Assembly (NCBI RefSeq): GCF_030265065.1
Contig: NC_080408.1
Coordinates: forward strand, 22,727,480-22,791,479
Reading direction: 5' to 3'
DNA from: Corythoichthys intestinalis
Lineage: Eukaryota
Length of the DNA stretch: 64,000 bases
A program made the position numbers and the translations under genes. Position 1 is the stretch's first letter; each line of letters starts with the position of its first letter. The notes under the pieces are model-generated. The model saw nothing but the letters and a program-made list of their open reading frames with translations. It ran no database searches and was not told where the DNA came from. Shown piece by piece: positions 7,836 to 56,331 of this stretch.

Positions 7836-7904
7836 ATGGCGGACATCAAAACGGGAATATTCGCTAAAAATGTGCAGAAGAGGCTGAACAGGGCGCAGGA
7901 GAAG
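7836..7904 (+). CDS. amph: amph exon 1 (MADIKTGIFAKNVQKRLNRAQEK)
   Basis: ATG at 7836 in Kozak context gcgtcATGG. The 23 codons are identical to the human AMPH N-terminus. Donor GTAAGC at 7905. Confidence 0.9.
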
Positions 7905-7992
7905 GTAAGCGCTCCGAGGGGTGTGAGAGAAGGAGATGATGAAGATGAATGAGTTGGAGGAAGATGAGGACGGGGAGGTCGGTGATGGACGC

Positions 7993-8195
7993 TGACGTCC
8001 TTGCAGGCAGGCCGTGACAGCTTTTGGAAATGCGCGATGCGATGACGTCAAGTACAGCGAAAAGCAACATCATACGTATTCCAGCCTCCTCCAAAACTCG
8101 ATTAGCTGTCATTAAGCGTTTTTTTTTTTTTAATTGCCCTAGTGGTGACGTCATGCAACACGAGCGTTCTCGCGAGATGACGTCAAGGGTGATTA
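7993..8195. promoter_or_regulatory. cluster of CRE sites in amph intron 1: TGACGTCA at 8043-8050, 8156-8163 and 8188-8195, plus TGACGTCC at 7993-8000
   Basis: Three perfect 8-bp CRE palindromes and one near-site within about 200 bp, starting 90 bp downstream of exon 1. Confidence 0.4.
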
Positions 8196-8599
8196 CTTTC
8201 GCCACATTTTGTTTTAAGTACACACATAGTGCAATCGTACATTTAGATTTTTTTTTCAAATAAATGTAAATTTTCTATGTAATTTAACTTCTATGTACTC
8301 CAGGAACACCTATTTTTGTTAAAGAAGGAGTACATTTGACTACATTGACATTTATTTTCAGCCAGTAAATATGTTGATGATCCCGAAACGCAATGTCAGC
8401 AATAGAATTAACTTACAAGATATATGCCCTGATAGTAGCTGAGCCCATGCTCGTACATACAGGCATCCCAGGTGTGTGTGTGTTTTCCTGTCTTACCTAG
8501 TGGAGAAGTAGATGCCGCATCCTTTTTGACTGAATATTCCTGCCAGGAACATTTATAATAATGCGTTGAAAATGAGCATTTCTTTGCTTCCTATCATTA

Positions 8600-8912
8600 A
8601 CTTTAACGTTTTTAGTGCAGCAAACTGAAACTCCACCCACCATTTTGGCGGTGCTCTCCCGCGTTTCATGGACCACATGTTCAATCCTTGGTTCTCACTC
8701 AGTAGTAGTTATCGCTTTTGAAAGCTTAGGTTTGAAAAAATTACGTATATCCATCTTGCCTCTTCTGCACTCAGGTGATTATTATTATAATTTTTTTGCT
8801 AAGCAAAGAAATTGACCGTATCTAAATTGTGAGTCACATGATTGAAATATAATTTTGACCCATTGTTAAAATATTTTTTTGCTAATTTCATTCATTTTTG
8901 TTGTTTGTTTTA
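8600..8912 (+). repeat. interspersed repeat family R2, copy interrupted by a Tc1 insertion (continues at 12211..12300)
   Basis: Collinear with the intact copy at 62565..62900. TA target duplication at the Tc1 junctions. Confidence 0.6.
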
Positions 8913-9739
8913 CAGTGTATCACAAAAGTGAGTACACCCCTTGCATTTCTGCAGATATTTAAGTATATCTTTTTATGGGACAACACTGACAAAATGACAC
9001 TTTGACAAAATGAAAAGTAGTCTGTATTCTTGTATAATAGAGTTCATTAATTTCCCATCAAAATAACTCAAAGTATAACCATTAATATCTAAACCCCTGG
9101 CAACAAAAGTGAGTACACCCCTGAGAAACTACATCCCTAAATGTCCAAATTGAGTACTGCTTGTCATATTCCCTCCAAAATGTCATGTGACTCGTTACAG
9201 GGGTGCTGTCAGCATTGCTGCAGAGATGGAAGAGGTGGGGGTGGGGGGTTCATTCCCACCACCATGCTTGACTGTAGGCATGACACACTTATCTTTGTAC
9301 TCCTCACCTGGTCGCCACCACACATGCTTGAGACCATCGGAACTAAGGGTGTGACAAAATATCGAAATGGTGATATATCGTGATACTTTGTATCCCAAAA
9401 GGTTATCGATATGCTCCTGCCAAGAATCGAGATATCGTTTTAAAAAGGTGTCAATGTTTCCACCACAGGTGGGTTGGGATCTGAGCTATTTGTAGGCCAT
9501 GACATGACATGATAAGTCTTTCTCCAAGGACTGCTTTAACGGTTTTAGCTCTTTGGCATGATGCATTATCATCTTGGAAAATGACATATTTTCAATTGAA
9601 GGGATAAGAAATCTAAAATGTCTAAAATTTCAATGTAAACTCTTGAAATTTATTGAAGATTTAACCACAGCCATCTCCCCAGTGCCTTTGCCTTACATGC
9701 AGCCCTACATCATCAAGGAGTGAGGGAATTTTGATGTCT

Positions 9740-9960
9740 TCTTCAGGCAACCATCTTTGTAAATCTCACTGGAATGGCACCAAACAAAAGTTTCACCATC
9801 ATCACCTTGTCCAATGCAGATTCTTGGCTCTTGACACCTTGTCCAATGCAGATTCTTGACTCCTTGTCCAATGCAAATTCTTGACTCTTGACAAGGTGAT
9901 GATGCTGGAACCTTTGTTTGGTGCCATTCCAGTGAGATTTACAAAGATTGTTGCCTGAAG
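9740..9960. repeat. perfect about 70-bp inverted repeat (hairpin) with a 22-bp unit ccttgtccaatgcagattcttg x3 in the loop
   Basis: 9745-9810 is the reverse complement of 9893-9960. Tandem triplet at 9812-9890. Confidence 0.7.
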
Positions 9961-10199
9961 AACCTGTTCCAGTGAGACCTTAAATGGCCCAAAATTGCCA
10001 AATTGCCTGGCATTGACTGCCACTGACAGCCATAGACGTTCAATCCGTTTGAAGTGATAAACTCATTCCAATTCACAGCACAAACTTTTTTTCTGTTTAT
10101 TAGTTGTTTGTACTATCCTAGAATGATTTCCTGACCAATGTATCGATAATCGTCGTATCGCCTTATCGTCAGATCATCGTTATTGTGAGCTTTGTATCG

Positions 10200-54704: not shown

Positions 54705-54795
54705 GTAGACGTCCAATCAGTTGGGGTTGGCTGTTCATTCGCTGTCACCCTCCCAGTGCAAATGGATTGGACATCTACAAGTGATAAACCCATGT
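54705..54795. mobile_element. palindromic MITE family M2 copy
   Basis: ..ggtagacgtccaatcag...caaatggattggacatctacaagtgataaac.. Confidence 0.5.
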
Positions 54796-54818
54796 AAAAA
54801 GCTTTCATTTAGTTTATA

Positions 54819-55961
54819 CAGTGCCCTCCATAATTATTGGCACCCCTGAAAAAGATGTGTTTTTTAGCTTCTAATAATTTTTTAAAATTCAAATAATATG
54901 GGACCTTAATGGAAAAAAAGAGAAAAATCTAACCTTCAGTACAAGTGCATTCATTCAGTGGGGGGGGGAAATCCCACATAAAGAAGAAATTATTTGACAT
55001 CAAATGATGTGTGTCACAATTATTAGCACCCTCTGGTGTTAATACTTTGTACAACCCCGTTTTGCTAACAAAACAAGGTCTGGGGACTGAGATGGCCATG
55101 GGAGGAGCTTGATTTTGATTTTGATTTTTGTGTCCGGTGAACCATTTCTGTGTAGATTGTGTATGTTTAGGGTCATTGTCTTGCTGAAAGACCCAGTGAC
55201 GACCCATCTTCAGCTTTCGGGCAGAGGGCAACAGATTTTGATTTTGATTGTGTTTGTTGCCAAAAAGCTCAATCTTGGCCTCAGACAAAAATACACACAG
55301 TCCCAGGCTTCAACTGGGACCGTGTGCTTTGGTCAGATGAGACAAAGATTGAGCTTTTGGCAACAAACACTCTAAGTGGGTCTGGCGTGCCACGAAATAT
55401 GCGCATGCTGAAAAGCACCTCATACCCACTGTGAAGTATGGGGGTGGGTCAGTGAAGCTGTGGGGCTGTTTCGCTTCCAAAGGCCCTGGGAACCTTGTTA
55501 GGGTGCATGGCATCATGAATGCTTTGAAATACCAGGACATTTTAAATTAAAAATCTGTTGCCCTCTGCCCGAAAGCTGAAGATGGGTCGTCACTGGGTCT
55601 TTCAGCCAGACAATGACCCTAAACATATGGCCAAATCTACACAGAAATGGTTCACCAGACACAAAATCAAGCTCCTCCCATGGCCATCTCAGTCCCCAGA
55701 CCTTGTTTTGTTGGCAAAAGGGGGTTGTACAAAGTATTAACACCAGGGGTGCTAATAATTGTGACACACATTATTTGATGTCAAATAATTTCTTCTTTAT
55801 GTGGGATTTTTTCCCCACTGAATGAATGCACTTGTACTGAAGGTTGGATTTTTCTCTTTTTTTTTTCCATTAAGGTCCCATATTATTTGAATTAAAAAAA
55901 AAAAATTATTAGAAGCTAAAAAACATCTTTTTCAGGGGTGCCAATAATTATGGAGGGCACT
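54819..55961. mobile_element. Tc1-like transposon (family 5), rearranged palindromic (foldback) copy, 1143 bp
   Basis: Both TIRs cagtgccctccataattattggcacccctg. Left half carries the transposase C-terminus on the - strand and the right half carries the same segment on the + strand (..[31 protein letters not shown]..), forming a long inverted duplication. TA duplication at both ends. Confidence 0.75.
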
Positions 55962-56051
55962 GTAAGTGCCAAATGATTGGACGTCTAGCATAGTCAATGA
56001 CACTGATAGTTATTATGAGCATATAGCTAGTTTCGGTGTGATCTCGCACAG

Positions 56052-56153
56052 GTGGAGACGATGCACGACTTCGAGGCAGCCAACAGCGATGAGCTGGACC
56101 TGAAGCAAGGCGACGTGGTTCTGGTGGTTCCCACCGCCTCGGCGGAGGATCAG
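56052..56153 (+). CDS. amph: amph exon 20, SH3 part 1 (VETMHDFEAANSDELDLKQGDVVLVVPTASAEDQ)
   Basis: Acceptor tctcgcacAG| and donor cag|GTGAGC. Near-identical to the human AMPH SH3 N-terminal half. Confidence 0.9.
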
Positions 56154-56226
56154 GTGAGCATCTCGCGACTCCATCAACCGAGTAAGCTGGATTCAAAACT
56201 TGTCTTCTTTGCGTCCGCCACTACAG

Positions 56227-56331
56227 GAAGCCGGCTGGCTGACGGGATTTAAGCAAAGCGATTGGATGACGCTAGGAAGCAGAGCTCAAAAGGGACTTTT
56301 CCCGGAAAACTTTACTCAACGTTTGGAGTGA
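56227..56331 (+). CDS. amph: amph terminal coding exon, SH3 part 2 + stop (EAGWLTGFKQSDWMTLGSRAQKGLFPENFTQRLE*)
   Basis: Acceptor ccgccactacAG|. Ends at TGA 56329-56331. Matches human DAGWLVGVKESDW...KGLFPENFTRRLD*. Confidence 0.9.
   Translation, partial: EAGWLTGFKQSDWMTLGSRAQKGLFPENFTQRLE

Follow-up and report, generated by a model that had tools for sequence, protein, structure and literature searches.

A syngnathid amphiphysin gene with two splice donors at exon 15 and clathrin-motif exons that appear constitutive

We found that a 64-kilobase (kb) stretch of fish DNA on contig NC_080408.1 (the whole stretch is called the window below) contains, on its plus strand from position 7836 to position 56331, a complete 21-exon amphiphysin gene whose exon 15 has two alternative splice donors. 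The account that we favour, and hold to be likely, is that this is a single-copy-type vertebrate AMPH gene of a syngnathid fish, with constitutive clathrin-binding exons, a variable spacer and a two-donor exon 15. An earlier reading made from the letters of the DNA alone (the sequence-only reading) had reconstructed the locus as 21 exons with the same limits, and both the span and the exon count match our mapping of an annotated protein. It had also proposed an exon 15 of 1344 nucleotides (nt); this exon is real, and it is the long form of the two-donor exon, matching long isoforms that are already annotated. What has to be corrected is the location of the splicing variation, which lies in the spacer and in the dual donor of exon 15, not in the clathrin-motif exons. 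Public annotation already covers the amphiphysin gene, its exons and the families of its isoforms; as a finding, the gene itself is of little consequence, amphiphysin domain logic being textbook. The value is mainly one of validation, in that a reading made without tools recovered a 48.5-kb, 21-exon vertebrate gene down to an 18-nt micro-exon.

The gene was placed by tblastn with human AMPH as the query, which gave collinear plus-strand matches to the BAR, linker and SH3 segments from 7836 to 56328; exons 1 to 10 and 19 to 21 were derived from these matches, with GT-AG boundaries. The encoded BAR and C-terminal protein segments were concatenated and searched against a protein collection, and the best 120 matches were taken. 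The top match, a 649-amino-acid (aa) amphiphysin labelled Nerophis lumbriciformis (P0001), is 100% identical to the window over this query. Exact-word mapping of P0001 on the three forward frames gave 21 coding exons on the plus strand, from an ATG at 7836 to a stop codon (TGA) that ends at 56331, with GT-AG at every intron of the gene. Mapping of an annotated teleost amphiphysin, a check akin to the one that the sequence-only reading had named for its model, yields 21 segments, and the exons that it had placed by homology (1 to 10 and 19 to 21) are confirmed by both tblastn and the exact mapping. The window product differs from P0001 at 2 residues, both in exon 15, and is 649 aa long with the short form of that exon and 1035 aa long, with no internal stop, with the long form.

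Exon 1 (7836-7904) matches P0001 exactly; it carries the start codon and the N-BAR amphipathic helix MADIKTGIFAKNVQKRLNRAQEK, which is a 100% tblastn match to human AMPH residues 1 to 24, and it ends at the donor AAG/gtaagc. The BAR domain and the start of the linker are encoded by exons 2 to 10, all on the plus strand within 15205-28006 and all placed by exact mapping of P0001 with GT-AG throughout (exon 2, 15205-15285; exon 3, 15383-15437; exon 4, 19583-19677; exon 5, 22865-22960; exon 6, 23016-23123; exon 7, 23193-23278; exon 8, 27535-27610; exon 9, 27687-27769; exon 10, 27865-28006). At the other end of the gene, also on the plus strand, exon 19 (52772-52954) contains the conserved IPSVVIEPASSNEGDDD block, and exons 20 (56052-56153) and 21 (56227-56331, with the TGA stop) encode the SH3 domain. 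Phase 0/0 is found in exons 11 to 18, and likewise in exons 19 to 21 and in exons 1, 2, 5 and 6.

By its closest matches in sequence and structure, the locus is an orthologue of AMPH (amphiphysin 1). The best 120 matches are all of AMPH type and mostly from teleosts, and nearly all are named amphiphysin, the rest being unnamed or "hypothetical" proteins with the same domains. The N-BAR domain was found by Pfam at residues 14 to 231 (PF03114, E = 4.4e-47), and the best structural match to the BAR segment is human amphiphysin (PDB 4ATM, E = 6e-115), ahead of BIN1 (2FIC, 1.9e-86) and BIN2. BIN1 was considered as the identity of the gene and rejected on this difference between 4ATM and 2FIC and on the naming of the top matches. 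For the SH3 domain (SH3_9/SH3_1 in Pfam), PF00018 scored 23.1 bits, just over its cutoff of 22.9, and PF14604 scored 29.8 bits (E = 5.3e-7), just under its 30-bit cutoff; structural matches to PDB 1BB9, 1MUZ and 5I22 were found at about 5e-20. Both motifs expected of the clathrin-binding region are present: LLDLD, from exon 12, agrees with the clathrin box consensus L-phi-X-phi-[DE], and PWDTW, from exon 13, with the W-box consensus PWXXW (PMC5694535). Beside P0001, a second record also labelled Nerophis lumbriciformis (P0007, RefSeq isoform X4) is ~93% identical to P0001 in BAR plus SH3, and its micro-exon peptide, AQPSKT, is Dunckerocampus-like. Such divergence between P0001 and P0007 points to a paralogue, to a record with the wrong label or to another species as the source of the window.

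The linker had been read as exons 11 to 18, all of phase 0 and 18 to 1344 nt long, and this description held, with lengths of 120, 84, 27, 18, 186 or 1344, 42, 138 and 54 nt. All lie on the plus strand. Exon 11 (40333-40452) encodes a proline-rich motif and IIDLFGGEF, which occupies the position of FxDxF in mammals. Exon 12 (40518-40601) encodes the clathrin box LLDLD within ESLLDLDFDAF (PNERPGESLLDLDFDAFQPDESVSPVPQ), and the 27-nt exon 13 (40702-40728) encodes the W-box PWDTW within TAVPWDTWS; both assignments, made by the sequence-only reading, agree with the annotated P0001. Its candidate 18-nt micro-exon AQPAQT, exon 14 (40809-40826, ctcctag/GCT ... ACT/gtaagt), is part of P0001 as well, and the same peptide is found in Hippocampus and Festucalex proteins. 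Exon 15 starts at 44380 and is described below. It is followed by exon 16 (46691-46732, DATGPSFFADFDKM), which is 90% identical to Syngnathus scovelli DNA, by exon 17 (48791-48928), an acidic, proline-rich part of the linker, and by exon 18 (49110-49163, ESVSVPEEKKESPVDETS), which has no counterpart in the S. scovelli locus. The four exons that had been placed with low confidence (14, 16, 17 and 18) are all present in the annotated protein.

To survey how relatives use these exons, we searched 120 teleost amphiphysin isoforms, the best matches described above, including 12 syngnathid RefSeq ones, for the motif of each exon. Exon 14 is skipped in 5 of the 120 (P0002, P0072, P0082, P0085 and P0089, with P0002 and P0089 being syngnathid), the short exon 15 is present in 76, and exon 16 in 98 (it is absent from ~22). 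Exon 17 is variable or partly used, the exon 18 motif occurs in only 8 isoforms, and exons 19 to 21 are present in all 120. Both inclusion and skipping are annotated in relatives for exons 14, 15, 16 and 17. In other teleosts, exon 11 has alternative acceptors whose use removes either 3 residues (xKK) or a 12-aa proline-rich stretch; in the window, a tandem acceptor lies 9 nt inside the exon (ATGAAAAAG/GGA, 40333-40341), and its use would drop MKK. The "-LKK" isoforms of other teleosts parallel this removal of MKK, and exon 11 starts with ATG in syngnathids. A 30-nt FNGF(S/T)Q mini-exon is found in 62 of the 120 teleost isoforms and in tetrapods, and the 12 syngnathid isoforms examined lack it. 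A search of the window for counterparts of three exons known from other percomorphs, the FNGFSQ mini-exon and the STIGSPGSEK and IPPADETK exons, gave only chance-level matches, none of them between exons 15 and 19, and we conclude that these three exons are absent or unrecognisable in the lineage of the window.

Exon 15 begins at the acceptor at 44380 and can end at either of two donors. The short form (44380-44565, plus strand, 186 nt), which is the one in the annotated 649-aa protein, ends at the internal donor GAG/gttagc; the long form (44380-45723, plus strand, 1344 nt) ends at the distal donor GAG/gtacat and is the form that the sequence-only reading had proposed. The proposal was right that the 1344-nt exon is a real coding exon and overlooked the internal donor at 44565. 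Its description as an ordinary neuronal cassette gives way to that of a conserved vertebrate long-isoform exon, with the long form maintained throughout the bony fishes. The 1158-nt extension that separates the two forms (44566-45723, plus strand) contains the conserved blocks RRKSTPGLIFTNEFGEQIED, SPDGSGSEYETAEEWGD and SDMSEDETANLRFGKMYQDVAKEKEE. That it is genuinely coding is argued by its open frame, its homologues, its invariant blocks, its conserved donor and the long isoforms of relatives. The longest open frame in the 64-kb window, 471 codons, holds the 1344-nt exon, and no frame elsewhere exceeds 322 codons (a transposase). The translated extension has 39 homologues, with ~40% identity to other teleosts, and in an alignment of 18 sequences (A1), which range from eels and cyprinids to percomorphs, the blocks PGLIFTNEFGEQIED and GSGSEYETAEEWGD and the tail KEPENSDMSEDEAANRRFGKLYQELDTEKEE are invariant. 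No Pfam family was found in the long exon.

A profile search of 1.8 billion representative sequences gave 74 matches, including RefSeq long amphiphysin isoforms. The full-length matches combine BAR, LLDLD, the long exon and SH3, to which most of them add the proline-rich motif and the W-box, and they come from Cololabis saira (X1-X4), Stegastes, Esox, Albula, Gymnothorax and Cirrhinus. Proteins of frog, snake, gecko and a rat cluster are also among the matches, the tail in the window being SDMSEDETANLRFGKMYQDVAKEKEE. Tetrapod RefSeq long isoforms, with BAR, clathrin-binding region and long exon, were found in the frog Hyperolius riggenbachi (X1-X3) and the snake Erythrolamprus reginae (X1-X5); in both, the large exon comes right after PWDLWTTSTDLVQP and ends in SDLSEDEIANQRYGLLYQEIEADKDE. 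A rat read-through model (LOC100909679, P0226) likewise runs from PWDLWTTSTDLVQP straight into a large exon ending in SDLSEDEIANQRYGLLYQEIEADKDE. In relatives, the distal donor is joined to exon 16 (...AKEKEE/DATGPSFF in P0133 and P0135, ...TEKEE/DGAAPSFF in P0158). S. scovelli has a homologous 1329-nt exon (L001:6325-7653) that is open throughout and shares the frame of the short form, and the 3' end of the extension is 80% identical to the S. scovelli DNA, which equals or exceeds most constitutive exons. As a side observation, frame, DPF repeats and tail are all preserved in the S. scovelli long exon, which has lost the PGLIFTNEFGEQIED and SGSEYETAEEWGD blocks found in the window and in most teleosts.

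The 386 residues of the extension include 6 intact DPF motifs and 1 NPF motif. Five of the DPF motifs and the NPF lie inside an array (44965-45455, plus strand) of about a dozen ~14-aa repeats of the xGGAFDSDPFAETQ type, the first few of which are degenerate, and the sixth (GWDPF) stands ~75 nt downstream of the array, near 45530. At the DNA level, a tandem repeat of period 84 spans 45199-45425. The DPF content is well above chance, with 6 observed against 0.13 expected and none of 20,000 shuffles reaching 6. NPF is a ligand of EH domains. DP[FW] and FXDXF have been defined as AP-2 ligand motifs, with DP[FW] an established ligand of the AP-2 appendage (PMC5694535). We also compared DWSADF (exon 15) and GWDPFG (extension) by eye with the WXX[FW]X[DE] consensus of the same source, and neither fits. 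In all 118 of the 118 teleost isoforms with a clathrin-binding region, FGGEF or FGGDF stands at the FxDxF position and DAF (rarely DTF or DSF) at the DPF position; eel, bonefish, pike and carp amphiphysins keep DPF at the exon 12 position. In the window gene, DPF is found only in the exon 15 extension, and the clathrin-binding region of the short isoform lacks both FXDXF and DP[FW]. From this it is reasonable to suppose that AP-2 engagement in these fishes would depend on the long isoform.

These observations lead us to a tentative proposal, which we regard as possible rather than probable, that donor choice at exon 15, and not the skipping of the exons with the clathrin box or the W-box, acts as the real switch. 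The short isoform would bind clathrin and little AP-2, and the long isoform, probably retinal, would form a multivalent hub for AP-2 and EH-domain proteins on a BAR-SH3 scaffold, with a DPF (plus NPF) array that may be specific to the lineage and an FxDxF and DPF loss in the same percomorph lineage. Our literature search found no paper describing such a DPF-repeat or dual-donor switch, and its results for DPF in fish amphiphysin were swamped by "days post fertilisation." The retinal assignment draws on an amphiphysin I variant specific to the retina, amphiphysin Ir (Terada 2002; Hosoya 2004), as it is cited in passages of PMC11536687, PMC3046965 and PMC6952364; from such citations, its retina specificity is known for mammals (rat) only. 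In mammals, the likely equivalent of the teleost long exon is the large exon of amphiphysin Ir. The DPF-repeat long exon is a modest lead for the study of endocytosis at fish ribbon synapses.

Several observations weigh against our account of exon 15. P0001, the only protein found that matches the locus, uses the short form, and the similarity between the long exons of fish and tetrapods is confined to the ~60-residue tail. Position and this tail motif are what tie the long exon to amphiphysin Ir, and from them we infer that it is the same as "insert A" of that variant. The clathrin-binding region of percomorphs lacks canonical FxDxF and DPF, which leaves AP-2 binding by the short isoform uncertain. 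In addition, several RefSeq models with the long exon start inside it and lack BAR (S. acus X4, S. scovelli X2, O. melastigma X6, a Fundulus LOC model, Amia X5, X7 and X8, Ambystoma X3 and Paroedura X1); the long exon might therefore mainly serve products without BAR. If so, the 1158-nt extension could belong to a separate transcript that starts at an internal promoter and encodes the DPF-repeat region and SH3, as would fit the occurrence of models beginning in the long exon in seven or more species that range from bowfin to gecko, and the recording of the S. scovelli model as a separate gene range (L001:6691-9030). However, the first in-frame ATG of the extension in the window comes only at SDMSEDE, close to its 3' end, so that its translation here depends on reading from the acceptor at 44380, upstream of it. 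Its frame is continuous across the internal donor in both the window and S. scovelli, continuous open reading frames (ORFs) from cyprinids to percomorphs contain the short exon 15 motif together with the extension, and BAR, clathrin-binding region and long exon are combined in the isoforms of Cololabis, Hyperolius and Erythrolamprus named above. We therefore consider a separate BAR-less transcript unlikely. The use of the proximal donor by P0001 and the fast evolution of the extension (~40% identity to other teleosts) would also be expected if only the 186-nt exon were real in this species and the extension were an intron that is open by chance. This we find barely credible, given that the extension lies within the longest open frame of the 64 kb, shares invariant blocks with teleosts from eels and cyprinids to percomorphs, ends at a conserved donor that is spliced to exon 16 in relatives, and is 80% identical to S. 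scovelli DNA at its 3' end.

The sequence-only reading had gone on to propose that exons 12 and 13 are independent neuronal cassettes, so that splicing could toggle two modes of clathrin binding through LLDLD and PWDTW. Both exons are short and of phase 0/0, in the paralogue BIN1 the alternative exons 13 to 16 do switch the clathrin-binding (CLAP) region on and off (PMC4973113), and one tilapia model, P0095, joins exon 12 to exon 15 without exons 13 and 14. In our survey, however, 118 of the 120 teleost isoforms contain LLDLD and 115 contain PWDxW. The five isoforms that lack the W-box (P0077, P0095, P0103, P0107 and P0108) are all automatic models found only in UniProt/UniRef, and two of them have unrelated residues in the clathrin-motif region. 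Among the 120, the 12 syngnathid ones included, no RefSeq isoform skips exon 12 or exon 13. Nor is phase symmetry diagnostic of cassettes, since the constitutive exons 19 to 21 are also phase 0/0, and the all-phase-0 pattern that had been taken as a mark of cassettes loses its force on this point. Thus, the clathrin-motif exons appear constitutive in the annotated isoforms, these isoforms do not support the proposed splicing switch of clathrin binding, and we judge it to be quite unlikely. The broader claim that exons 11 to 18 are skippable is supported by the annotated isoforms of relatives for the spacer exons 14 to 18 and not for exons 12 and 13.

The favoured account, a single AMPH gene with constitutive clathrin exons and two donors at exon 15, would work as follows in a syngnathid fish with a large, transposon-rich genome. 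Exons 1 to 10 would supply an N-BAR module that dimerises on curved membrane, and exon 11 a proline-rich stretch that may act as an SH3 ligand. Exons 12 and 13 would supply two ligands of the clathrin terminal domain, with LLDLD directed to the clathrin-box site and PWDTW to the W-box site, followed by an acidic, disordered spacer (exons 14 to 18) and by the conserved acidic block and SH3 domain (exons 19 to 21). SH3 domains of the amphiphysin family recruit dynamin and synaptojanin. By homology, the protein would be a BAR curvature scaffold that uses two motifs to bind clathrin and also recruits SH3 ligands. Because every exon from exon 11 on is phase 0/0, any combination stays in frame; the variable part would be the spacer exons 14 to 18 and the alternative acceptors of exon 11, with the clathrin-binding exons constitutive. 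Use of the proximal donor at 44565 would give the common, brain-type protein of 649 aa, and read-through to the distal donor at 45723 a long isoform of ~1035 aa with 386 additional residues, 6 DPF motifs and 1 NPF motif. This long isoform would be the fish counterpart of the annotated long isoforms of teleosts and tetrapods, and probably of the retinal, ribbon-synapse amphiphysin Ir. The data show how the exons are arranged, which domains and motifs they encode, how far these are conserved and which isoforms are catalogued in relatives; the binding partners, the tissue specificity and the isoforms actually used in this species are predictions.

The window has 39% G+C and a CpG observed/expected ratio of 0.74, and an Rfam scan of its whole length found no RNA gene. 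The gene spans 48.5 kb here and 7 kb in S. scovelli (L001), a difference due in part to Tc1/mariner insertions. Transposase ORFs of this family, Sleeping-Beauty-like in type, sit upstream of the gene and within its introns 2, 7 and 10: a near full-length one at 25819-26772 (plus strand; HTH_SB, HTH_Tnp_Tc3_2 and DDE_3), and others at 3835-4617 (plus), 14037-14531 (plus) and 35771-36304 (minus). Intron 10 also contains a 66-nt element (29703-29768) that is 91% identical to S. scovelli L001:4688-4753 and better conserved than most exons. It has an ATG and, 46 nt later, a strong donor-like GGATG/GTGAGT, without an upstream AG; no annotated protein contains its translation, and it has neither an Rfam match nor a significant fold (z about -0.6). 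Possible readings of the element are an alternative first or 5' untranslated region (UTR) exon, a decoy splice site or an enhancer. A low-complexity, A-rich stretch at 28834-29244 (plus strand), with a spurious 136-aa lysine-rich ORF (KKKKKK runs), is probably a degenerate repeat and not a gene. About 4.6 kb downstream of the stop codon, a weakly conserved segment at 60892-60996 is 71% identical over 105 nt to L001:9262-9363, which lies ~230 nt after the S. scovelli stop, and may be 3' UTR or intergenic regulatory sequence. The S. scovelli locus is flanked by a TGF-beta family gene (upstream, on the opposite strand) and a CCDC39-like gene (downstream).

In its overall plan, the window gene agrees with vertebrate AMPH, such as that of human, having in the same order the N-BAR, the proline-rich motif, LLDLD, PWxxW, the acidic linker, the IPSVVIEPAS block and SH3. 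The amphiphysins of the syngnathids Hippocampus, Syngnathus and Phyllopteryx are 93 to 95% identical to it in the best local alignment, which covers ~70% of the BAR plus SH3 query. Compared with mammalian AMPH, FEDNF (FxDxF) is replaced by FGGEF and the DPF after LLDLDF by DAF. As in the annotated long isoforms and, probably, amphiphysin Ir, a large in-frame exon directly follows the W-box exon and micro-exon, and the long-isoform exons, that of the window included, end in an SD(M/L)SEDExANxR(F/Y)GxxYQ...KEE tail and splice onward to the distal linker. In contrast, the bodies of the tetrapod long exons have no detectable similarity to those of fish beyond the tail and lack DPF repeats. With its 6 DPF motifs in 386 aa, the long exon resembles Eps15, epsin and AP180, which carry multiple DP[FW] motifs in a disordered region, the classic form of a multivalent AP-2 appendage ligand (PMC5694535); unlike these proteins, with which it has no sequence homology, it has lineage-specific tandem repeats of ~14 aa inside a BAR-SH3 protein, and its AP-2 binding is putative. 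The paralogue BIN1 (amphiphysin 2), in its neuronal isoforms, shares with the window gene a BAR domain, a clathrin/AP-2-binding region and an SH3 domain. In the CLAP region of BIN1, alternative exons add or remove clathrin binding (exons 13 to 16; PMC4973113), whereas the clathrin-motif exons of AMPH appear constitutive in annotation.

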